Source: Dictyostelium discoideum (lineage: Eukaryota). From it: DNA of 64,000 nt. How positions within the stretch are numbered: position 1 is the stretch's first letter; each line of letters opens with the position of its first letter. The notes beneath the pieces are model-generated. The model was not told the DNA's origin and ran no database searches. It saw only the letters and a program-made list of their open reading frames with translations. Both the position numbers and the translations under genes were made by a program. The DNA lies in NCBI GenBank assembly GCA_000004695.1, contig CM000150.2:4859597-4923596 (forward strand). Reading direction: 5' to 3'. This document shows positions 7,354-64,000 of this stretch, in pieces.

Positions 7354-12972
<5,619 letters not shown>

Positions 12973-13496
12973 TAAAAATATTAAAAAATGAAAAAAATTA
13001 TTATTAATTAATATAATAATAAAAAATAAAATAATATTTAGTTTTTATTACTTTAATATTCAAAACTAAAAAATGAATAAATAAAAATTCTTCTTTTTAA
13101 TTTTTTTAACTAATTTATTCAAAATTTTTTTAGTTTTCCAAAATATATTTTCCTCTTTGGCAATATCTATTCATATCTTTTTTTTACAGATAAAAAACTT
13201 TTTTTTTCTAATATCTAATAAATTTAGTTATATTTTTTTTTTTTTTTTTAAGAATTGAAGTTTCCCTCTTTGAAATTTTTTTTTTTTTCTTTATAGGAAA
13301 ATAAATTTTAAAAGGAAGGAAAAAATTGATTTTTAATTTTTTTTTTACAGAAATAAATGTGGAATAATCACATGTTTTTATTTAAAATAAGTAAATTGTT
13401 TGTTTTTAAATATTTGAATTTGAAACTTTAAAGTAATTAGATTTTTTTTCTTTTTTTTTTTTTTATTTTTAATACAATATACACAAGAATAATTTA

Positions 13497-13537
<41 letters not shown>

Positions 13538-13540
13538 AAA

Positions 13541-15239
13541 TTAATTTAGAGATAAGAATTTGACTCGGATAAATTGATTTCCTTGAATTTTTTGTCCATC
13601 AAGATTTTGTTGAGCTAAAATTGCATTTTCTGCATTATTAAAAGATATGAAACATTTTGTTTTGTTACTATTTGGATTTATATTTATCTATTTTATAAAA
13701 TGATAATAATTAGTAACCAATTTGAAAGAAAAAAAAAAAAAAAAAAAAAAAAGGTAAATTCCAAATAAAACACTTACATTTATACTTTTTAAATCTCCAT
13801 ATTTTGAAAAAATCTGGATTAAATTTGAATATTCTAAACTTCCTTTAAATGTGCAAACCAAAATTGAAACTGAATTATTATTTATAGTTTTAGTATATTT
13901 TGGTGAGGATGGTGGTGATTGTTGTTGCGGTTGTTGTGGTTGTTGAGGTTGGTATTGTTGTGCGTATACAATTGGTTGTTGTGGTTGTGGAATATGATGA
14001 TGATGATGATAATAATATGATGTTGCTGTTGGATATACGTAATAATTTTGATCAGTTGGTTGCCATGAATAACTTTGTTGTGGGGAAGTGGAATGTAATT
14101 CCCCATTTGTTGAGTAAACACCATTTGAATAATGATCATAATAATTATTTGAGTATGAATTTGAATTATATTCCTAATTTTAAAAAAAAAAAAAAAAAAA
14201 AAAATTAATATTAAAATTAAAATTAATAGATAATCTATTTAAACTAAGAGAATATATTAAATATTTACTTGTGATGCATAATAACCTTGATATGGCTCAC
14301 CTTGATAAACATATGAATATTGTGGTGGTGGAGGAATTGATGGTAATGGTGGTTGTGGAATTGATTGTGGTGGTTGTGGAATTGATATTGGTTGTATTGA
14401 TTGTTGCTGCTGTTGTTGTAGTTGTTGAGATGATTGATTATTATTATATTTTTGTGGTTGTGGAGATGATGGACGTTGAGGTTGATTTGGAGAAGATGAA
14501 CGATTTGGAATATTTGTTAAAGAAGAAATTGAGTTAGTTGTGGGACTTGGTGTTAAAGAAGATGTTGATGATATAGATGAATTTGATAATGATAAATAAG
14601 GAATTTGAATTGATTGTTTTTTACCATTAGGTGCATACTTAACTATTTTTTTTTAAAGAAAATATATACATATATACGTACATATTAATATTTGTTTTTT
14701 TTTTTAAGGAATATAAAATAAAATAATATCTTACCAACTAAAGGAGTTTCACCTAAAATTAAAGAACCAGACATTGATTGTAAAGCATTTGTTGAATAAT
14801 GAATATTTGAGAATTTAATAACGCCGGCTCTCTTACTTTTTCCACTACTGGCATCAATTAAAACTTGAGCCTCAATAACTTCACCAAATTGAGAGAATGT
14901 TGAGTTTAAAATTGCATCAGTAATTGTTGGTGATAATACTCTAACATAAAGAGTATTTGATGGATCTCTTTGTTGTTCAGTTTGGGATGGTGAAGTAGTT
15001 GCACCACCATTTGAATCTGGTACACAACAACTAATACCACCATTTCCATTGTTACCTACAAATGGAGACACTGGTGGTGAATTTGATGGTTTCGATAATT
15101 TACATAAAAGTGTCTTATATCCAACTTGATATCTATTCATATTTTTAATTGCTTCACAAGCATTTTCTGGATTTAAAAATCTTACAAATCTATTTAAAAT
15201 ATATTATAATTAATATTTTGGATTTTTTTTTTTTTTTTT

Positions 15240-50367: not shown

Positions 50368-51328
50368 AAAACAAAATTAATAATCCATAATATTTTTTAA
50401 CCTTACAATTAGTATATATATTATTATCTGTTTAAATAAATAATTTTTTTTAACCTTACAATAGAATATAAATAGTATTTTTTTTTTTTTCTTTTTTTTT
50501 TTAATGATTGTAATTGATGGAAAATAAAAAAATAAAAAAAGGTTGTTTTACAATAAATACTTTAACATATGTTTTAAAAAAGAAAATAAAAAAAATAATT
50601 ATCAAAATTAAAATTTTTTTTTTTTTTTCTTTTCAATGGAACTATCAGTGGATAATTGAATTAATTCTGAATAAATAAAGTTATTTTGGAAAAGATCGAG
50701 TTATCCCGGAATAAATTCAGTTATTTCGAAAAAAGTTTATTTTCTTTTGAAAAATTTTTCACTTTTGGTATGTTTTTTTTTTTTTTTTTTTAATAAAACA
50801 CATTATTTAAAACAAAAATTTTAAATAATATTAAACAATATTTGTTAAGACCTATAGTAGAATTTGGTTGTATTTATGGAGAAATAAAGAAAATATAAAA
50901 AAAAATGAACTTCGAAAAAAAAAAGGAACATCAAAAAAAAAAAACTACATATAAAAAATAAATCCTTTATTTGAACCCCGGTATTTTTGTTTTTTTTGTC
51001 AATCATACTATTAATTTTATTTATTTATTTATTATATTTTTTATTTTAATTGTGAATAAATGAAAAAAATTAAAAAAAAAAAAAATAATATGGCCAATGA
51101 AAAATTTTTCGCCAAAAGAAAACTGTAATTAAAAAAAAAAAAAAAAAAAAAAAAATAAATTAATTATTTTGTAAATTTTGATTATATTAATTTATACACA
51201 CAATTTCATTACCAAAAAATACTTGGCTATCGGAAATATAAACTTTAAGATTGTGGTTTTTTTCACCATTTGAATAAATGGCTAAACTGTCAGCTACTTT
51301 TGTTCTTGTGTTACTATCCTTATTACTT

Positions 51329-51700
51329 CACAGCAAAGAAAAATGCACCTTTAAAGCCAATTTCAAGCAAATACAATTTAAATTTGCTTTAAATTGGCTT
51401 TAAATTTGCTTTTTAAAAAGGTAATTTTAAAGATATTTTTAAGGTCATTTAAAATTACATTAAAAATGACCTTTTAAATTTATTATAAAGCGGTTTTTAA
51501 ATAATGTTTTAATCACTTTATAATAAATTTAAAAAAGTTATTTTTAATGTAATTTAAAATTACTTATCAATCCTTTTTTAAGCTTTTATTAATTATATTT
51601 TTTAAAATACATTTTAAATGCATTTTAAATACATTTCAAATCAATTTTTACACTATTTATTTCAAATTTATTAAAAAAAAAAAAAAAAAATAAGAAAATA
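51329..51700 (+). repeat. CACTA/EnSpm-like transposon terminus, copy A: TIR CACAGCAAAGAAAAATGCACCTTTAAAGC followed by degenerate TTTAAA-rich subterminal repeats of about 10 bp
   Basis: The same 30-bp terminus recurs at 53270 (same orientation) and inverted at 53875..53904. The subterminal block is made of tttaaa(g/t)g..-type repeats. Confidence 0.55.
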
Positions 51701-52360
51701 AAAAAAAAAAAAAAAATTAAGAAAATTATAAAAAAAAAAATTAAAAAGATAACCAAATTAATTTTAATTCTTTATTTATTTGTTTCAGTGGCAATTGAAT
51801 TCTATTATTATTATTTTTATTAATTAATAATAAATAAGTGTTTCAGTTGCCTTGGGTTTTATATTATTTTATTTTAAATTTTACTTCTCATTTCAAAAAG
51901 CGAAAAATATCAAAAAAAAAAAAAAAAAAAAATTTAATTATTTGTTTTGCATATTTATATTATAAGTATAAACATACATATAAAAAAAGATTTTTTATTT
52001 TTTATTTTTTATAATTAATAAACAATTAACGAGTGCACAGGTATATTATTGCATTAGTGTAGTTTTACAATAAATTGGGCAGATTTTATAGTTTTTTTTT
52101 TTAATATTTTAAAAAGAAAAAGGTATAGACAGGGTCATAGGTTCCCCGTCATTTTTTGAAAATGGGGTATATCCCTCTAAATATAAAATTCTAAGTACTA
52201 AATCATATATCTACTTGCTATAATGCTAAAATTTGAATAAAATGAAAAAAAAAAAAAAAAAAAAAAACGTAAAAACTCGAGGAAAAAAAAAAAAAAAAAA
52301 TATTATTTTTAATTTCCAGCCAGCAAACAAAATGAATTTAAATAACATATCATGCATTAA

Positions 52361-53269
52361 TTGCAGAGAAAAATTAAAGAATTTAAAAATATTATTATTC
52401 ATTATATTATGCATAAAAATATATGTCCATTTTGTCTTGCATATTACCGTTCTTATAAACAATTTTATGATGTAAATGGACATTCCAACACCAAAAAATG
52501 TAAAAATGAACAAAATAAAATTATTACAAATAATCAAAAAAGAGATAGCTTTTATAAAAAATTAATGGATATTACTGGTGAAAAAATAAAATATCCAACA
52601 AATGATCCAGATGACCCATGTAAACATTTATGTAACCAAAACCAAGATGAAATTTTTTATCAAGAAAATAATGAAAATAATGAAAATAATCAAACAATTG
52701 ATAATGAAGAAAATCATGATATAATTGGGTTGGTACATAGTGAGGATGAAAACAATGAAATTAGAATAGATGAAAATGAAGCAAACATTAATAATGAAAA
52801 TAATGAAAATAATGAAAATGAAAATGCTCAAAACGAACCAATAAATAATAATCTAAATAATAATTTAGATAATGAAAAATCAAAAAAAAAATTAAATGAA
52901 ACTGAAATTGAATTTTTAATGTTGGGAATTGAAAACTCAATAAGTTTAAAGCTACTTGAAAAATTTAAAAGTTTTATTGACAAAAATAAAACCAATTTAA
53001 ATCAAATAAGATACACACCTCAATATATGGATAAATTATTTATGGAAGATTTTCAAATAAAAGGAGAAACATTTATAAATAAAAATTATGATCACTCAAT
53101 TTTTTATTTTGAAATTAAAAAAGTATTAGAAACTTTATTAAATAAAAAGCAATTTTTTGAAAGAATAGATTTTGATACAGATTTTGAAACTGGAATTTAT
53201 ACAAATTATAAAAGTGGTCAACAATTTAAAGATTTAAAAAATAAAAATAAAAATAAAATTGTTTTACTT
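52361..53269 (+). pseudogene. Transposon-associated ORF (Cys-rich N-terminus, N/E-rich middle) truncated by the TIR-bounded insertion at 53270
   Basis: ORF ...ISCINCREKLKN / CPFCLAYYRSYKQFYDVNGHSNTKKC...; a frameshift links it to the 52233 ORF. Its reading frame runs straight into the TIR CACAGC at 53270, where the last residues are encoded by TIR sequence. Confidence 0.4.
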
Positions 53270-53904
53270 CACAGCAAAGAAAAATGCACCTTTAAAGCAA
53301 ATTTAAAGAAAAGTTGATTTAAATTGGATTTAAATTGAATTTAAAGCCGCGTTTAAAAAATTCATTTTTAAGGTAATTTTTAAGGTAATTTTTAAGATAT
53401 TTAAAAATGCCTTTAAAATTTGCTTTAAAATAAATTTTTAAGCAATTTTAAAGGTGATTTTAAAGGTGATTTTAAAGGTGATTTTTAAGGTAATTTTTAA
53501 GATAATTTTTAAGATATTTAAAAATACCTTTAAAATTTATTTTAAATTAATTTTAAATAGGATTTAAAGTAGATTTAAAGTAGATTTAAAGTGAATTTAA
53601 ATTTCCTTTAAACATAAATTTAAGGTTTTTAAAAAAAAAGATCTAATTTTAGAACAAAAAAATGGGGATAAAATATTCTATCATTTTTAAATTTTCATCA
53701 AAGCAATCAAATGGTGTAATGGTTGATGAGACTACCCTTTGATAGAGGGTCGGGGGATCGAATCCCTTTTGGTAATTTTTGAAAAATTAAAAAAAAAAAA
53801 TTTTAAAAATTTATCCGTTAAATAACGGCTTCGAACTCAGGGACTTTAAAGCAAATTTAAATTTAATTTAAAGCGAATTTAAAGGTGGTTTTTTCTTCGC
53901 TGTG
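53270..53904. mobile_element. 635-bp non-autonomous (MITE-like) element bounded by about 30-bp imperfect terminal inverted repeats (CACAGCAAAGAAAAATGCACCTTTAAAG ... CTTTAAAGGTGGTTTTTTCTTCGCTGTG), carrying subterminal TTTAAA repeats and a tRNA-like gene
   Basis: Left and right termini are reverse complements (24 of 28 positions). The interior is (ggtgattttaaa)3, (gtagatttaaa)3 and similar. It lies between two transposase-like ORFs. Confidence 0.55.
53703..53776 (+). tRNA. tRNA-like gene or pseudogene (candidate anticodon GAU, Ile-like) with an imperfect cloverleaf and a downstream extra-B-box-like motif
   Basis: D-loop AATGGTT with GG; anticodon arm ACCCT-TTGATAG-AGGGT (5-bp stem, U33, GAU, A37); T-arm/B-box GGGGGATCGAATCCC. 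A second B-box-like GGCTTCGAACTC lies about 55 bp downstream (53830), as is typical of dictyostelid tRNA genes with ex-B boxes. However, the variable region is only 1 nt, and the D stem (GTGT/AGAC) and acceptor stem (AATCAAA/TTTGGTA) have mismatches, so it may be degenerate. Confidence 0.35.
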
Positions 53905-53909
53905 TTAGA

Positions 53910-54722
53910 ATATTCACTGATAGTATGCAGTGTCAAAACAAGAAAGATTATACTATAATGCTGGATATAGAAAATTATATTGGAAATGAATTTAAAAATA
54001 ATAAATTATTATTATTTGTAGTACCAAATGATTGGTTACTTAATTTTCATCAAACAATTAGGGCATTGTTTTCATCTTTTATTGGTAATGGGTTTAATTT
54101 AATTATTGAAAATGAACAAATAGATGTTGTACCGTTTGGACTGACAATGGATATTCCAGAATTTAGAGCATCGTGTAAACTTAATGGACATAATTCAAAT
54201 GAATATGCATGTCACACATGTGACAAACCAAGAGATGGTTTATTTATTTGCAAATCAGGTACATTAAGAAAACAAGAAGATATTACAAATTTTCACTCCA
54301 CCAAACCAAATTATGCTGAACTAAATGCTGATATAGAATTAAAAAAAGTATGGGAAAAAAAAGCAAAAGATATTGGTATCAAAGGTGTGGACAGAGGGTG
54401 GGTCGAACCTTTGTCCATTAATTATTTAAAAACACAACCAGACATTTTACATAATATTTTATTAGGTGTCGCACAAAGATGTTTAAATTACATTTTTGAT
54501 AAATATAAAAATAAAATTGCAAATTTTTTAAATAATTTAAAAAATGCAAAAATAATAGATAACAAACCAAAACCATCAATTTCACTATTTGCAAATAAAA
54601 CAAGGAAAGGAAGAGAGAATAGATCAATATTATATTACTTTTTAATATCAATTAAAAATCAAATATCAAATGATGATTTTTTAATTATGGAACAATTAGT
54701 AACTATATGTTTTAAATTTTAA
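53910..54722 (+). pseudogene. EnSpm/CACTA TNP2-like transposase fragment
   Basis: ...FRASCKLNGHNSNEYACHTCDKPRDGLF... and KGVDRGWVEPLSINYLKTQPDILHNILLGVAQRCLNYIF resemble the plant/fungal tnp2 transposase core (D[VI]MH[IV]EKN...). The ORF has no ATG until 53925 and begins in frame immediately outside the right TIR at 53904. Confidence 0.45.
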
Positions 54723-54929
54723 TTATAATAGTAAATATTGGTAGAAGGGCTCATTTTAACCTATATTTAATATTGGAAGAAGTATTAAATAGTTTATTAC
54801 TTTAATTTTTTTCACAAATTTTTAAATTTTTTTTCCAAAATTTTTTTTTTTTTTCCCATATAAAATAATTAGTTTTTACTTTTCTATTTATTTTTTTATT
54901 TTAAATAAAATTTTGATTACGTTAATACA

Positions 54930-55530
54930 AAATGTGTAAAACAGGCCAGATTTAAATAATTATAAAGTTAAATTTGTTGAAAATGTAATTTCTCCATTTA
55001 AATAAATAGTTTTTCAAAATATGATTTTTTTAAAATTTTCCATATTAAAAGATTTTTTTTTAAAAATAGTTTTTTTTTTCATTTTAAATTCAAATGTTTT
55101 GAAACTGGCTTAGATAACACAAAACAGGCCAGATTTTAGTTTAGTGAAATTTGGATTATTAAAAATTAAAATTTAAATACAAATTCTATAATTTACTGAA
55201 AAATGATTTTTTCCATTTTTTTTCAAAATTTTTTTTTTACATATAAATATTTACTTTTTTAAATTTAGCTTATTTTTTTATTTTACTTTAAATTTTACTT
55301 TAAATATGTAAAAGTGTGTAAAACAGGCCAGATTATAGTTTTGTAAACTTTAAATTTATTTAAATTAAAGTTAAAATAACAAATAGTATAATTTACTGAA
55401 AAATGATTTAAAAAATTTTTATTTTACTTATAAAAATTTACTTTTTTAAAATTATTTTAAATTCATATTTTACTTTAAATTCAACTTTAAATATGTCAAA
55501 CTATGTAAAAGAGGCCAGATGATCGATTTT
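54930..55530. repeat. Four tandem repeats of about 190 bp, each containing AAAACAGGCCAGAT (units start at about 54931, 55121, 55311 and 55497)
   Basis: Direct comparison of the four units; typical of transposon subterminal tandem arrays. Confidence 0.75.
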
Positions 55531-56246
55531 TAGTTTCTTAATTATTTTAAATTGAATTTAAGAAATTAAATAGTGTGATTTTGTAAAATATGTTTTTTAT
55601 ATATATATATTTTTTTTCCCTATACAAAACTATATAAAATAAAACTCTGTTATTTTTTTTATATTATTTTAAATTCCATATAAACAATGTTATATGTCCC
55701 ATGCCAAAATTACCATATTAATTTCAGCAGCCATATTAATTTTGGCATGGGACTTAGGTCTGCCAAAATTACCTTATTAATTTCAGCAGCCATATTAATT
55801 TCAGCATGTACATAGCTGCCAAAATTAATATGGTAATTTTGGCATAGAAAAAAAAAAAGTCAAAGTCATTTAATTAATAATCATCTCAAATATAAACAAA
55901 ATTTTAGTACTAAAATTAATATTATTATTATTTTTATTTTAATAATTATAATAATAAAAAAAAAAAAAAAAATTTTCATATTATTTTATTTATATCTTTT
56001 ATTTATTTTTATCTTTTTATTTTTATTATTAATTTTATAATTTATTTTCATTTCTTTTTTTTTTAGTTGATATATATTTTTTTATTATTCATTTATTTCT
56101 AAGGCTAACAAAAAAAAAAAATTAAAAATAAAAAAAAAAAATAAAATAAAAAAAAAAAAAAAAAAATTAAAATAATTTTTTTTTTTTAATTTTTTTTTTT
56201 TAATTATCTACTCTTCTACTTACTCTTTTGTTACTAACAGATGAAG

Positions 56247-56482: not shown

Positions 56483-59400
56483 CAATTTTTTTTTTTTAAA
56501 TTTTTTTCAATTTTTATTTGTTTATTAAATTGTAATTTTATTTTTTGTTTTAATTATTATTTTATTTATTATTATTGTTAATTTTTTTTTTTTTTCAATT
56601 TTTTTTTTTTTAATTTATTTTTATTAATTTATTTTTATTAACTCCCTGAGTTGTTCAATTGCTTGATTTACCATATCACTGTAAACACTGCACACAATTG
56701 AATTTTTTCTAGCTTTGTTACCTCTGGTGCATTTGATGTTTTTGCATTTTCCTTTGTATACAAAAAAGTCCAAATATAATTCGTTTTCTATTACAGTTTT
56801 TACACAATGTTGGTGAAATTGTTTTGATTTTAATTCTAATGCTTCTAACATCATATTTGAATTTTTAACGATTAAAGCATCACCACTATTTACATATAGT
56901 ACTTTGGCTGCTTTTTCGAGGAATTTAGTCAAATTTTCCTCTGAATCTAACTATTCTTCATTGCCATATTCAATGGCTAAATTTCTTAAGAGTTTTATCG
57001 AATCTATTAATTCTTCGATCATTCTTTTTTTTTGAAATTTTTTTTTATTTTGTTTTTTCAATTTTTTTTTTTTATTTTGTTTTTTCAATTTTTTTTAAGT
57101 TTTATTTTTTTTTATTTTTTTTTATTTTTTTTAACAAATGTAATTTTTTTTTATTTTTTTCAATTTTTTTTTTTTTTAATTTTTAATTTTTTTTTTTTTT
57201 TTTAATTTTTTGTGTTGATTTGTGTTTTTTTTGTTTTTTTGATTTGGCCACTTGTTTTTATTTTCTAATTTCCCCATACCCCCTTCTATTAATTGCAACC
57301 AAATCAAGTTCTAATTTTTGTGTCCTTGTTGACTTTGTTTTTGCAACTTTTTTTGAAGGTATCACATTAACGATTTTTCCTATTGATGGTGATTTGGAAG
57401 GTGATTTAAATGGTGATTTAAATGGTGAATTGGAAGGTGATTTAAATGGTGAATTGGAAGGTGAAATGGATGGTGATTTGGAAGGTAATTTAAATGGTGA
57501 TTTGGAAGGTGATTTAAATGGTGATTTAAATGGTGAATTGGAAGGTGAAATGGATGTTGATTTGAGAGGTGATTTGGATGTTGATTTGAGAGGTGATTTG
57601 GATGGTTTAGAATGTGATTTTAAAGGAGGTTTATTAACAATTGGTATCTTATGAGGACGGCCTCTGAGACGTTTAACAGTTGTTACTATACCACTACCAG
57701 ATTGTGGTATAGTATATGATGGTATTATTTGCACTTGAGGTATTGGTGGTACTATTTCTTTTAAATTCATATCCTTTCTCAAACAATTCATTAAATTTGG
57801 CGCTGTTGGATTATTATTTAAAAATGGGAGTATTTCTTCTTGTTCCATTTCATTATTGAGTTTGTGTTGAAATGGATTATCGTTAATGATAGGTGGAATA
57901 TTTGATGGATTGTTAAGAGCATCTTCCAAAACCCTAAATGGATCATTTTGTGTTACCAATTGATGCAAGTTGAAATTGGATAAATCCTTACCAAGATTTT
58001 TAATAAACTGAACCAGAAATTCAATAACTTTCCCATCATTATTTAAATAAAGACCAGAAGTAAAAGAATCAATATCTTTTTGTATGTTTGGCGATGTTCT
58101 AAAAATATCAACTGTTGATTGTTTATAAAGAACCAACTTGTTACCTCCTACAAAACCAGAGTATAAACCTTTTTTTTGAAGGCTATTGATTCCATCTTCC
58201 AAAAATTCAAGTTTATAAAGTTGTTTAGTGTCTTCCTGTATTACCTTATGAATTTTACACAAAATCAATATTTTCTATTAGAATTAAATATAAAATTTGT
58301 TAATTATTACTGTTTCATATATTATTAATCTTTATGTTTTAATTACTTACATTATTTTTTTTAATTTCTAGAAAGAGTACAGTATCACCAACTTTCAATC
58401 CCTTTGGTGGTTTTGAATTCCATTGATTTTGGTAACTTGTGAGATTTTCAAGAATAATAGCTGTTATTTCTTCTTTTGAAACATCTGAAACACCAATTGA
58501 TTGAGAGTCTTGTTCTGATTGCACATTAATAAACAAAGGTACAATACCAACAGCTTGAGATGGTGTCATTTTAATTGTTCTTGTTTTTGTATTATTGTAA
58601 TCATACAAAGCTTGTTTTAATAGTTCAGAAAGAGACCTAGAAGTACCATCAAGAAAACTAAAATTTATTTATAAATGATTAATTAATAAACATATCGATA
58701 ATTTATATTGTTCAAAATATCATACTCTTGTTGTTTTAATTTTGAGATCCTCTCCTTGATAGTTCGATTCAATCTTTCTACCATACCTTGAGTTGTTGGT
58801 GTACGAGGAGCTCCATGTGCTGACTTGGAGCCTGGAAAAAGTTTTAGGAATTCTTTTTGGACTTTGTTTTTAAATTCACGTCCATTATCGCAGTGCCATA
58901 CTTTCACAGAGTTTTAATATAAAAGTTACAAAACATCATATAAAAAATGATTGATACCAAACCTTTTATTCTATTTCGTTGGCAAATGTCACACGTATCT
59001 ACTGCATCAGATACAAAAGAATACAATCCCATATTATAATATTTAGTCTTGTAGTTCCCATAGGTTGCATCTCTTCCTATATGACCTTTATGCATTTCTT
59101 CCCAGAGTGATACCATTCTATAATCATTAATTACTTCTAAACACACTTCTTTTGATATATTTCTATCTCCGCCACAATTCATGACTTTTTTTTCAATTCT
59201 AAATAATTTTTCTTTTCTGTTTCTGTTTTTTATTGGTCAGAATTTAAAAAATGATTGTGTTATGGTAAGGAAAAATATTTACTCATCATGTAAAAATTTA
59301 TAATTTTTATGTTTAGTATTTTCAAAATTATTATCTTCAATAAATTTTAAATAATTTATTCTGTTTCATTTTGGGGAAATGAAAATAAAAAAAAAAAAAA

Positions 59401-60317: not shown

Positions 60318-61119
60318 GAGTTTTTTTAATTTATTTTTATTATTTTTTCAATTTCTGTTGCAGAAAGTTGATTATTTAATTTATTGTCTTTACTGAAGAC
60401 CATTTTTTGGAACGAAAACTTTAAAAAAATAAAAAAATAAAAAAAAAAATACTTTTTTTTTTTAATTTTTTTTTTTATATTTTTTTTTTTATATTTTTTT
60501 TTTTTAAATTTTTTTTTTTAATTTTTTTTTTTTATTTTATTTTTTTAAAGTTTCGAACAATTATATATAAAAAAAAAGTAAAAGATATCCCTTCGGTTAA
60601 TTAAATAATAATAATAATAATAATAATAATATAATAATAATAATAATAATAATACTTATTTCGAAATGTTTAAACAATCATACAGTTTAAAATTAAATAA
60701 ATTGTTTTAAACCACCACTTTTTTTGAACACATGAAAATAAATAAGATATAAAAATAATAAGATAAAAAAAGATTTTTTTTTTTTTTTTTTTTTTATTTT
60801 ATAATTATTCTTGTCGTCAGTATTGTTACTATAATTAATCCCATGAGTTTTTTTTATTATTATTTTTAATTCTTTTATATTTGAGATGATTATTATTAAT
60901 TAAATGACTTTGAGTTTTTTTTTTTATATTTCTATGCCCAAAATTACCATATTAATTTCAGCAGCCATATTAATTTCAGCCTAAAATAGTTGGTCTGTGC
61001 ATGCCAAAATTAATATGGCTGCTGAAATTAATATGGTAATTCTAGCAGACATAAGTCCCATGCCAAAATTACCATATTAATTCCAGCAGCCATATTAATT
61101 TTGGCATGGGACAGTTATA

Positions 61120-62830: not shown

Positions 62831-63305
62831 CAGTATGTTGGGCATCATACGGCCATTTGTCAATAGTAGGTCGGCGGTGGTGGTCATCAGCTGATGACAG
62901 AGGACCGTTTGCTCATAGTGGGCTTACTGGGTGACTTAGGCTACTATGTTGTAATTCTCTCGATTTGTCACTGTCATTCGGCTAGCATTTAGAGGTTAAC
63001 GTAATCAATATACATTGGTCACAAAAAACTTTTTAATGGTGGAAGGTAAATTTAATGTCACTAATAATCGGTCCGTCAAATTGGTTAGTTAGAGGGCATT
63101 AAGCGTGCTGAAAGCTATTAGAAAGGATCAATTGTGTTGATTCGACCTATCTCTAATATGTTAGTCGGGTATGTCCGGCAGTTTAGCGGCAGGGGGAACG
63201 GTGTACGCGCTGGGTTTCTGGCCACCGTTGCAGTAGCAGGTAAGATCTGCGTAATACTAGTACTTGTCCGAAAGATTATTCTAATTCCGCCTCACCTTTG
63301 TAAGA

Positions 63306-63635
63306 TTACCCGCTGAACTTAAGCATATCAGTAAGCGGAGGAAAAGAAACTAACTAGGATTCCGTCAGTAACGGCGAGTGAAGACGGAATAGCCCAAGGT
63401 TCAAACCTGGATCTCTTCGAGGTTAGGTGATGTGACCTATGGACTGATGGAGCCCGCTGTTGTGACTGCTAATTCCGTTTGGAATTTCGAGTCGTAGAAG
63501 GTGATAACCCTGTTCGCAGTATCACAACAGTTGGACTTTGCCATTAGCTCCACGAGTAGGAATGTCTGAAATTGCATTCTGAATGGGTGATAAGATTCAT
63601 CCAAGGCTAAATATATGTTAGGAGATCGATAGCAT

Positions 63636-63666
<31 letters not shown>

Positions 63667-63900
63667 TTTGAAAAAAGGTTTAAAAGTATTTGACACCGTT
63701 TATGTGGAAGCGTTTACTTGGACCCCGATTAATGACGTCGGTTTAGCTCTAATTCTTAGGTGGCCAAAGTAGAGTGTTACGTGCTGATCAAAAGGGAACG
63801 GACATTTGATTCATTGGTTATCGACGAGGAAGGGACTCTAAATCGGCCAGTTACTAACGGGTGAGATCTGATGTCTATAAAATGGAGGATGAGGCTTATC
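63306..63900 (+). rRNA. 5' end of large-subunit (26S/28S-type) rRNA gene, partial (runs into the N gap)
   Basis: TTACCCGCTGAACTTAAGCATATCAGTAAGCGGAGGAAAAGAAACTAAC is the universal eukaryotic LSU 5' terminus. Downstream ...AGTACCGTGAGGGAAAGGTGAAAAGAAC is the conserved D1-region motif. Confidence 0.9.
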
Positions 63901-64000
63901 NNNNNNNNNNNNNNNNNNNNNNNNNNNNNNNNNNNNNNNNNNNNNNNNNNNNNNNNNNNNNNNNNNNNNNNNNNNNNNNNNNNNNNNNNNNNNNNNNNNN
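63901..64000. other. Assembly gap (100 N)
   Basis: Run of N characters. Confidence 1.

Follow-up and report, generated by a model that had tools for sequence, protein, structure and literature searches.

How does a tRNA-like sequence come to lie within a small repeat element, and does anything still make use of it there? The question is raised by a 635-bp unit at positions 53270-53904 of the window, by which we mean the whole stretch of 64,000 nucleotides of Dictyostelium discoideum DNA analysed here. The initial annotation had read this unit as a mobile, MITE-like element with a tRNA-like gene as its payload or, alternatively, as a resident tRNA gene that had gained transposon ends. We identify it as a DNA transposon, short and without coding capacity, that ends in 28-bp inverted repeats and is flanked by a 2-bp target site duplication (TSD), TT, the copies of which lie at 53268-53269 and 53905-53906. 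The left terminal inverted repeat (TIR; CACAGCAAAGAAAAATGCACCTTTAAAG, 53270-53297, plus strand) is invariant across 13 aligned copies and identical at 24 of 28 positions to the reverse complement (CACAGCGAAGAAAAAACCACCTTTAAAT) of the right one (53877-53904, minus strand). The left-terminus 28-mer never occurred in 100 shuffles of the window, and the imperfect TIR proposed at the outset stands. So does the TTTAAA-type repeat interior: between the ends lie 11-12-bp TTTAAAG-type repeats, which form a left subterminal array (53298-53640, plus strand), have counterparts of the same style at the ends of a partner element described below, and are presumed to be transposase-binding sites.

Alignment places the junction of an internal deletion of about 125 bp, particular to the window copy, at 53839-53845. 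The deletion is bounded by two TCAGGAC repeats and takes out a perfect hairpin of about 41 bp, which in the canonical form (13420-13560 of locus L002) folds with z = -9.6. It had been missed in the initial annotation, as had an exact second copy of the left terminus at 51329 and the interruption of an ORF with a 2-bp TSD. We also considered whether the unit is a miRNA-bearing thug-S repeat and rejected this identity, since mir-7131 at 61010 belongs to an unrelated element and the canonical unit has no Rfam match at the gathering threshold.

That the unit moves is evident from its distribution. Within about 160 kb (the window and loci L002-L004 and L008) there are 16 full-length copies (about 760 bp) in addition to deletion derivatives, of which the window unit is one, and the sizes range from 635 to 774 bp. 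The same core and the same ends recur at about 20 separate sites, where a 2-bp TSD of its own flanks every copy; these duplications match in all 17 copies checked (TA, AT, AA, TT, AC, AG and TG). For the window copy the empty site is preserved in three paralogous copies, which read ...TTTTACTTAGAATATTC... without the unit and define both copies of the TT duplication; excising the unit together with one TT restores a frame of 574 codons. With its 635 bp, the window unit is one copy of a small mobile DNA transposon that is abundant in D. discoideum, and it has the properties of a non-autonomous MITE: short and non-coding, with TIRs, TSDs, many copies and termini in common with an autonomous partner. 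The tRNA-like part, for which constant presence had been in question, is found in all full-length copies.

The empty sites and the multi-copy distribution refute the alternative in which transposon ends were added later to a tRNA gene already in place. A related view, with the unit as an intron-like stretch of a host gene, draws on public gene models, in some of which a copy is annotated as an intron or the gene is broken in two there (P0006, P0044 and P0013). Set against this are the uninterrupted site in paralogs, the recurrence of the same core and ends with individual TSDs, and termini that read CA...TG and not GT...AG, and we give these two readings practically no credence.

What, then, moves a unit that codes for nothing? 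The window copy lies within a dead copy of a partner element of about 5 kb (51329-54722, plus strand). The left 28 bp of the unit are identical to those of the partner at 51329-51356 and at position 8844 of L002, and the right ends are homologous. The transposase ORF of the partner is split by the unit into 52361-53269 and 53907-54722 (plus strand), at a point five codons ahead of the first catalytic Asp (..IVLL|RIFTD..), and this partner copy is truncated at 54722 by another repeat, before the H(3)H motif. A full partner of 5,034 bp with the TSD TG is present in L001, and the transposase has 35 paralogs in D. discoideum; the source names of the AX4 proteins are all 'hypothetical'.

Pfam returned nothing meaningful for the interrupted ORF and five full-length paralogs, a profile search with the transposase against PDB sequences gave no match, and an AlphaFold model from a 15-sequence transposase alignment was unusable at a pLDDT of 36. 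A profile search from the transposase reached Pfam through intermediates, namely proteins bearing PF02992 Transposase_21, to which it aligns in hhalign with 98% probability (E = 6e-14, 534 columns). In P0003 the residues D325, D405, C(2)C (CHTC) at 425, H(3)H (HLLLH) at 595 and E616 follow the order that defines the clade of CACTA/Mirage/Chapaev (CMC) transposases (PMC12730594). The termini CACAG...CTGTG and the 2-bp TSDs agree with the 5'-CA..TG-3' ends and TSDs of 2-5 bp of this superfamily (PMC12730594), as do the subterminal repeat arrays with CMC elements. Judged by its sequence, the partner transposase belongs to the CMC superfamily. The initial likening of the CACAG-type terminus to EnSpm/CACTA elements holds at the level of the superfamily, while canonical CACTA elements differ: the termini here are CACAG and not CACTA, and the TSD is of 2 bp (Mirage-like) and not of 3 bp. 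In the mechanism that we propose, the CMC-type DDE transposase of the partner would move the unit in trans, the two having their termini in common, with 2-bp target duplications as the result. The window unit has landed inside the transposase gene of a partner and killed that gene.

We take the unit to be, most probably, the short form DDT-S of the DDT family and the partner to be of the DDT type. DDT-A, DDT-B and DDT-S were reportedly described as D. discoideum DNA transposons by Glockner and co-workers in 2001. The host is the same, and the likeness extends to two autonomous subfamilies with ORFs of about 800 aa that are about 50% identical, to an additional short non-coding form, and to an abundant occurrence clustered with other repeats. 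The DDT family is mentioned in PMC4559204 and PMC5633606, and in the latter it is put at 0.9% of the genome. Its transposases are described as being without recognisable relatives (PMC5633606), whereas the partner transposase here aligns to the CMC/Transposase_21 clade.

The unit is not a simple internal-deletion derivative of this partner, an origin that we rejected because a core of about 200 bp is lacking in the L001 full partner as well as in a partner right end in L003. With two partner right ends lacking it, the core must be regarded as foreign. CACTA elements are known for capturing host fragments, and the core may have arisen by the capture of a tRNA gene. What is left of such a gene? 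The tRNA-like cassette (53705-53775, plus strand), delimited by Rfam alignment, motif scan and family-wide presence, reaches 14.8 bits with RF00005 against a gathering score of 29, which corresponds to E = 0.66-6 over the full set of 4,227 families and to a per-family E of about 1e-4 to 1e-3. The alignment recovers 6/7 of the acceptor, 3/4 of the D stem and 5/5 of the anticodon stem with the loop UUGAUAG, and together with the A and B boxes and the T runs downstream this might be taken for a working tRNA-Ile gene (anticodon GAU) multiplied by the transposon.

We regard such a gene as very unlikely. The T stem of the cassette is shortened, the variable region has 2-3 nt only, and a T4 run at 53767-53770 falls within the 3' acceptor strand; a T5 run follows downstream of the cassette at 53776-53780. 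ARAGORN made no call in any of about 20 unit copies and, when relaxed, got to the cassette only at thresholds that also give spurious tRNAs in AT-rich repeats. RNA folding of the cassette revealed no preference for a cloverleaf (z = -0.1). Substitutions that break the stems and the anticodon are present among the copies, and in the sibling lineage, D. cf. discoideum, the acceptor keeps only 3/7, next to a rearranged anticodon arm, and Rfam gives no match to the cassette. GAU is moreover not known as a usual eukaryotic cytosolic Ile anticodon, which we counted against the tRNA-Ile reading. Among the D. discoideum copies, conservation of the cassette does not exceed that of its surroundings (0.76% substitutions versus 0.8-0.9% in neighbouring parts), a comparison that has no power because all copies are young and differ by at most 3%. 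Read from its motifs and alignment, the core is a decayed, tRNA-gene-derived Pol III promoter cassette and no working tRNA gene; of the payload first proposed, the tRNA-like stretch is real and family-wide, while the status of a gene falls with the low Rfam score, the silence of ARAGORN and the unkept stems.

The promoter motifs have fared better than the stems. In Dictyostelium the A box reads TRRYNNARYNG and the B box GTTCRANNC (PMC5391098), and for a tRNA-type Pol III promoter we looked for an A box at +8 with a B box 30-60 bp downstream. The A box of the cassette (TGGTGTAATGG, 53712-53722, plus strand) matches its motif perfectly and lies at +8. It is followed with a spacing of 44 bp by a B-box variant at +52 (GATCGAATC, 53756-53764, plus strand), which is one base off GTTCRANNC, so that no strict match exists on the plus strand. 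The GATCGA form of this variant is the natural form of the ex-B boxes after real tRNA-Thr and tRNA-Asn genes. Between the two lineages a block of 25 nt around the B box is identical at 25/25 positions whereas the arms are just 41-68% identical, a pattern with a probability of roughly 0.05-0.1 of arising by chance. The core can be understood as the remnant of a tRNA gene locus, with a 5' flank, an A box at +8, a GATCGA-type B box at +52 and T-run terminators, which may still act as a Pol III-type promoter cassette.

A second B-box-like motif (GGCTTCGAACTC, 53827-53838) begins 51 nt past 53776, after a small hairpin, CCGTT-AAAT-AACGG, with which it occupies 53815-53838 in the motif scan. It had been described as a dictyostelid-style extra B box, a label that does not hold: it fits GTTCRANNC solely on the minus strand, as GTTCGAAGC (53828-53836), whereas real ex-B boxes, located roughly 10-35 bp past the tRNA gene, have plus-strand sequences of GGTTCGATTCC or GGGATCGATTCCC. 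The sibling lineage keeps the hairpin stem and the second motif, with changes confined to the loop and the two N positions of the motif.

Is the cassette still recognised by anything? In three copies of the unit (L006, L007 and L008), which come from two lineages, L008 being from D. discoideum, an LTR retrotransposon of the DGLT-A type lies 14-15 bp upstream of the cassette +1. In L008 the junction reads ...AAATTT|TG..LTR..CA|ATTTTTCATCAAAGC|+1, the LTR ending 15 bp upstream of +1, and the split unit keeps its own TA duplication. In L007 and L006 it reads ...AAAATTT|TG..CA|ATTTCGTCAAAGCA|+1, though L006 differs in its genomic flank and has an LTR that is divergent. The L007 element is 4,961 bp long and has TG..CA LTRs of 389/390 bp that are 99% identical, a PBS 2 bp past the LTR and a 4-bp TSD, ATTT. 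It encodes gag (CX2CX4HX4C), PR, RT, RNH and IN without a chromodomain, and its ORF is broken once. Relatives of the retroelement are annotated merely as hypothetical proteins. The same family lies upstream of tRNA-Leu, tRNA-Thr and tRNA-Asn genes called by ARAGORN, at 12, 13 and 15 bp respectively and in the same orientation, and a search for real tRNA genes in L006-L008 found none. The name DGLT-A-type rests on the Ty3/gypsy domain set lacking a chromodomain, on the position of the PBS and on the upstream spacing at tRNA genes. The published window for DGLT-A is 13-33 bp upstream of tRNA genes with a mean of 15 (PMC5006619). As the same retroelement family keeps a similar spacing at true tRNA genes, the cassette serves it as a target in the manner of a tRNA gene, and the suggestion that a mobile element spreads insertion targets gains backing from these three copies.

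The window copy itself carries no retroelement, and the search for one at the expected distance succeeded only in the three other copies; its candidate landing site, ATTT at -14 to -11 (53691-53694, plus strand, located by the junctions in those copies), is empty. Of about 21 sampled copies, the retroelement is present in only 3, and 16 D. discoideum copies, the window's included, are empty, a sample biased towards a retroelement-bearing copy because L008 was fetched via the retroelement's own protein. No insertions of TRE5 (at about -50) or TRE3 (at about +100) were seen in this sample. Two further candidates for targeted insertions were rejected: the break near the cassette at 11839 of L004 is a rearrangement with an inverted partner piece, and the 2.7-kb insert in L003 (600-3308) contains a Dam-methyltransferase-like domain, which is characteristic of DIRS-type elements, a group that does not target tRNA genes (PMC5633606).

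Could the insertions be mere coincidence, or reflect a sequence preference of the integrase, in an ordinary MITE with a core that was captured but is inert, or that resembles a tRNA by chance? The sub-threshold Rfam score, the fold without thermodynamic signal, an ARAGORN match at noise-level settings only, the lack of extra conservation in D. discoideum and the 16 uninterrupted copies all fit such a view. A sequence preference is conceivable because the target ATTT with the flank ATTTT(T)CATCAAA resembles the flank at one real target, tRNA-Asn. However, the three insertions share their relative position to the nucleotide, in two unit lineages that have diverged, and involve clearly different LTR variants, and a random insertion into the 21-bp window of a 760-bp unit has a chance of about 3% per event. 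At real tRNA genes, moreover, the family holds its distance of 12-15 bp though the flanks differ (GATTCATCC, AAAATATTT). The A box exactly at +8, the B box in its natural ex-B form and the low per-family E of the tRNA match point the same way, and we judge an inert core improbable.

We therefore favour as likely the reading in which the window holds a slightly deleted non-autonomous DNA transposon with a decayed tRNA-gene cassette that still serves as a landing pad for retrotransposons. DGLT-A-type elements would insert upstream of the cassette +1 as they do at real tRNA genes, and with the cassette retained as a target each transposition of the unit would plant a new tRNA-gene-like landing pad. 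The published mechanism for DGLT-A involves a contact between its RNase H and Tfc4 while the tRNA gene is transcribed (PMC6101501); given this Tfc4-dependence, the insertions at -14 to -15 suggest that TFIIIC and Pol III may assemble on the cassette.

A bolder version is possible, though we lean against it. Here the DNA transposon would spread functional Pol III/TFIIIC sites as mobile safe havens for DGLT-A and possibly for TRE5-A, TRE3 and Skipper-2, with the B-box block kept by selection. TRE5-A, TRE3 and Skipper-2 are tRNA-gene-targeting retrotransposons that are still active. Selection of this kind might act for the landing-pad role or for another TFIIIC-dependent role, such as effects on chromatin or insulation, and the landing pads may be of benefit to the host or to the elements.

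Several known systems resemble parts of this arrangement. [quoted passage not shown] They are, however, retroelements that need the promoter for an RNA intermediate, whereas the unit is a DNA transposon whose movement does not depend on transcription. In the Dictyostelium rDNA palindrome, A/B-box loci without a tRNA context are targeted by TRE5-A (PMC5391098), which shows that A and B boxes outside tRNA genes can be used by tRNA-gene-targeting retrotransposons at tRNA-like distances. Those loci are fixed, with TRE5-A at about -47, in contrast to a cassette that is mobile and multi-copy and has DGLT-A-type elements at -14 to -15. DGLT-A and Ty3 themselves (PMC5006619, PMC6101501) provide a further likeness, an LTR element about 15 bp upstream of +1, with a 4-bp TSD and with the same orientation in all the cases examined here. 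The difference lies in the target, which here is a pseudo-tRNA cassette within another transposon and not a host tRNA gene.

Dictyostelium is the textbook case of retrotransposons that survive in a compact genome by directing their integration to tRNA genes. The partner transposase, of the presumed DDT family, for which the literature names no known relatives, finds its place in the CMC superfamily. On the practical side, the units mislead gene annotation, as public models take them for introns and read through them, or break genes up at them. A mobile, multi-copy pseudo-tRNA target would constitute a natural experiment on two questions: which minimal Pol III promoter is enough for targeting in vivo, and is the set of landing sites itself mobile? 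If the bolder version holds, one class of elements would make the niche of another, in what would be a three-way transposon ecology.

The unit at 53270-53904, a short non-coding DNA transposon of 635 bp, ends in 28-bp inverted repeats (53270-53297 versus 53877-53904, 24 of 28 positions matching). Its interior is made up of 11-12-bp repeats of the TTTAAAG type, together with a tRNA-like stretch (53705-53775, here called the cassette, with +1 at its start) and a GGCTTCGAACTC motif, so that the architecture described in the initial annotation is present. The window has about 20% G+C. The exact 28-mer terminus occurs twice in it versus never in 100 shuffles. The unit splits one open reading frame into two flanking halves, and removing it with one TT restores a continuous frame of 574 codons. 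Where the window has ...TTTTACTT(unit)TTAGAATATTC..., the sequence in three paralogous copies (two at L002, one at L001, both being other genomic loci) is ...TTGTTTTACTTAGAATATTC...; the comparison thus reveals an empty site and a 2-bp target site duplication. The element is, as had been proposed, mobile, and here it has been caught inside a gene.

Compared with the canonical form the window copy is about 125 bp shorter, the missing stretch lying between two TCAGGAC repeats (around 53841). With it went a perfect hairpin of about 41 bp (-56.8 kcal/mol, z = -9.6; L002 13450-13535), which TCAGGAC direct repeats flank in the canonical unit and which could be a source of small RNA or a fragile palindrome. 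The second 28-bp terminus of the window, at 51329, is the left end of a larger, ORF-carrying element, the partner. The hexamer TTACTT precedes both left termini (51323-51328 and 53264-53269), and upstream of other copies there is only a weak A/T-rich, ACTA/AGTA-like tendency; the hexamer may reflect chance or a weak target preference.

Among repeat-rich loci reached through protein look-ups, 16 full copies of the unit were found in the window, L002-L004 and L008, each of about 760 bp and with 92-99% identity to a consensus of 759 bp; deletion derivatives and fragments occur in the same places. Each complete copy lies in flanks of its own between matching 2-bp duplications (TA in six; AT, AA and TT in two each; AC and AG in one each), with further duplications at split units in L007 (TG) and L008 (TA) and at L005 (TT). 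In the sibling lineage D. cf. discoideum the units measure 699 bp, their arms being 41-68% and their left terminal repeat 86% identical to the D. discoideum consensus. Every full copy contains the cassette, in the window in its consensus form. The initial annotation had also considered that transposon ends might have gathered around a resident tRNA gene; the empty sites and the recurrence of one core within many separate flanks refute this.

We take the unit and its partner to belong, almost certainly, to the catalogued DDT family, in which A and B are autonomous and S is the short form. All 35 relatives of the partner ORF (52361-54722, protein family P0003) come from D. discoideum or close kin. 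The window copy is dead: relative to the protein P0044 it is frame-shifted near its start, it is interrupted five codons ahead of the IFTD motif, and another repeat cuts it off at 54722. A full partner at L001 5218-10251 spans 5,034 bp, with a TG duplication, an ORF of about 814 aa and subterminal repeats of about 400 and 600 bp. The insertion of units into this gene has left its mark on public models: an 865-aa model (P0006, L003 10001-14552) spans a unit at 12519-13277 as an intron, and in AX4 the transposase gene is split in two at the insertion (P0044/P0013; DDB_G0294224, DDB_G0294226).

For the partner transposase, Pfam, PDB sequences and AlphaFold returned nothing informative. With a profile of 15 paralogs as query, about 60 distant proteins were recovered from 1.8 billion representatives, and four of the ten scanned contain PF02992 (Transposase family tnp2) above the Pfam cut-off. 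hhalign matched the two alignments across 534 columns (98% probability, E = 6e-14), and the catalytic landmarks fall in register. P0003 has D325, D405, C(2)C at 425, H(3)H at 595 and E616, the residue order that defines the CMC(T) clade, for which CA..TG termini and duplications of 2-5 bp are also described (PMC12730594). The earlier guess of a CACTA-type element was therefore right at the superfamily level, although the CACAG termini and 2-bp duplication differ from canonical CACTA. The unit itself represents an already known kind of element, a non-autonomous DNA transposon of CMC type. A 2017 review found Dictyostelium DNA-transposon transposases to be without recognisable relatives and put DDT at 0.9% of the genome (PMC5633606); the alignment with CACTA/Transposase_21-type proteins contrasts with the former statement.

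The sequence that truncates the window partner (54723-56100) contains 187-bp tandem repeats at 55225-55561 with a recurring GTGTAAAACAGGCCAGAT motif. Further along, retroelement-type ORFs on the minus strand (56624-59182) have integrase-like motifs (HCDNGREF... and GMVERLNRTIKE); at the nucleotide level they do not resemble the DGLT-A-type element of L007 and so belong to a different family. At 61010-61098 Rfam calls a palindromic mir-7131 hairpin, with 96 bits on one strand and 91 on the other; the repeat that holds it has no relation to the unit. A related tandem motif of 59 bp (TGCCAAAATTACCATATTAATTTCAGCAGCC...) follows shortly after the truncated partner (55702-55827). Multicopy miRNAs have been assigned in the literature to the thug-S repeat. 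An rDNA fragment adjoins the transposon cluster, the 5' part of eukaryotic LSU rRNA (model positions 1-613) at 63287-64000 and continuing past the window end; upstream of it Rfam makes no 5.8S or SSU call at gathering threshold.

Is the cassette a tRNA gene, as first proposed? It is not. ARAGORN makes no tRNA call in the window or any copy-holding locus, and under relaxed settings it reaches the cassette only at noise level. The Rfam tRNA model scores 14.8 bits where 29 are required, aligning the acceptor (6/7), D stem (3/4) and anticodon stem (5/5, loop UUGAUAG), with a shortened T stem and a variable region of 2-3 nt. The E-value that Rfam reports is scaled to 4,227 families; counted for just the tRNA model it would be about 1e-4 to 1e-3, which suggests a resemblance beyond chance at the level of a pseudogene. 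Shuffled sequences fold just as well (z = -0.1), a T4 run falls inside the 3' acceptor strand, and in D. cf. discoideum the cloverleaf is not maintained and Rfam finds no tRNA match. The cassette is missing from the full partner (L001) and from a partner right end (L003), and is thus an acquired sequence.

The cassette does retain promoter features. A scan of the unit consensus with published D. discoideum motifs (PMC5391098) gives a single strict A box, TGGTGTAATGG at +8, while the cassette B box GATCGAATC at +52 is off the motif by one base. The one perfect B box, GTTCGAAGC, is the proposed extra B box, and it reads as such only on the minus strand, whereas the ex-B boxes of real tRNA genes (GGTTCGATTCC and GGGATCGATTCCC; L009 12226-12345 and 20402-20500, L010 11489-11610) lie on the gene strand, roughly 10-35 bp past the gene. 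Two of these are GGGATCGATTCCC, whose GATCGA form is shared with the unit's internal B box. Three of four real tRNA genes have a TTCA(T/A)C..AA-like 5' flank, and the cassette flank TTCATCAAAGC is of like kind. Cassette identity between D. cf. discoideum and D. discoideum is 79%. A block of 25 nt surrounding the B box matches throughout (25/25), and in the minus-strand B box the only differences fall at the two degenerate positions. In this one lineage pair, the pattern is suggestive of a conserved promoter rather than a conserved tRNA. The payload of the unit is a putative Pol III promoter cassette that probably derives from a tRNA gene.

The cassette serves retrotransposons as an insertion target. 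At L007 in D. cf. discoideum, a unit with its own TG duplication is split by a 4,961-bp LTR retrotransposon with LTRs of 390 and 389 bp (TG..CA ends, 99% mutual identity), a primer binding site TGGCGACATCGG 2 bp past the left LTR and a 4-bp duplication ATTT. It codes for gag (CX2CX4HX4C), protease, RT, RNase H and an integrase core, the chromodomain being absent, and its 3' LTR ends 14 bp upstream of +1; the uninterrupted site is seen in L005. At L006, a different genomic site in the same lineage, a unit shows the identical junction. The LTR there is set apart by large indels (78%) while the unit parts are about 98% identical, which makes two independent insertions the simplest reading. In D. 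discoideum proper, at L008, a locus selected through the retroelement's own protein, a unit with its own TA duplication is split in the same place, 15 bp upstream (...AAATTT|TG..CA|ATTTTTCATCAAAGC|+1). A real tRNA gene was looked for at all three loci and none was detected. The same retroelement family also ends upstream of real tRNA genes, at distances of 12 bp (tRNA-Leu(TAA), L009), 13 bp (tRNA-Thr(AGT), L009) and 15 bp (tRNA-Asn(GTT), L010), in constant orientation and with differing flanking sequences.

Such nesting also occurs in other forms. Two more full units sit back to back (L008 13806-14553 and 14554-15273) in the right LTR of a DGLT-A-type element that is itself inside a unit, which implies repeated mutual insertion of both types. 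At L005 8830-14558 (D. cf. discoideum) a full partner, the big DDT-type element, splits a unit at a point (...TTTTTCTATT|CACAG) that precedes the DGLT-A landing site by about 12 bp, and in L005 two unit copies in opposite orientation have one left flank in common, indicating an inverted duplication. Two other breaks near the cassette were rejected as targeted insertions, one being a rearrangement and the other a DIRS-type fragment with a Dam-like domain (E = 1.6e-5).

DGLT-A integrates 13-33 bp upstream of tRNA genes, with a mean of 15 (PMC5006619), its RNase H contacting the TFIIIC subunit Tfc4 during tRNA-gene transcription (PMC6101501). The retroelement at the cassette has the published hallmarks, including the upstream spacing, and together with the Tfc4 mechanism this argues that Pol III factors would assemble on the cassette. 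Among the sampled copies neither TRE5 nor TRE3 was seen at -50 or +100, and most copies, 16 in D. discoideum including that of the window, are empty. Although the cassette is not a tRNA gene, DGLT-A-type retrotransposons treat it like one, and three insertions in two lineages support the proposal that a mobile element spreads insertion targets.
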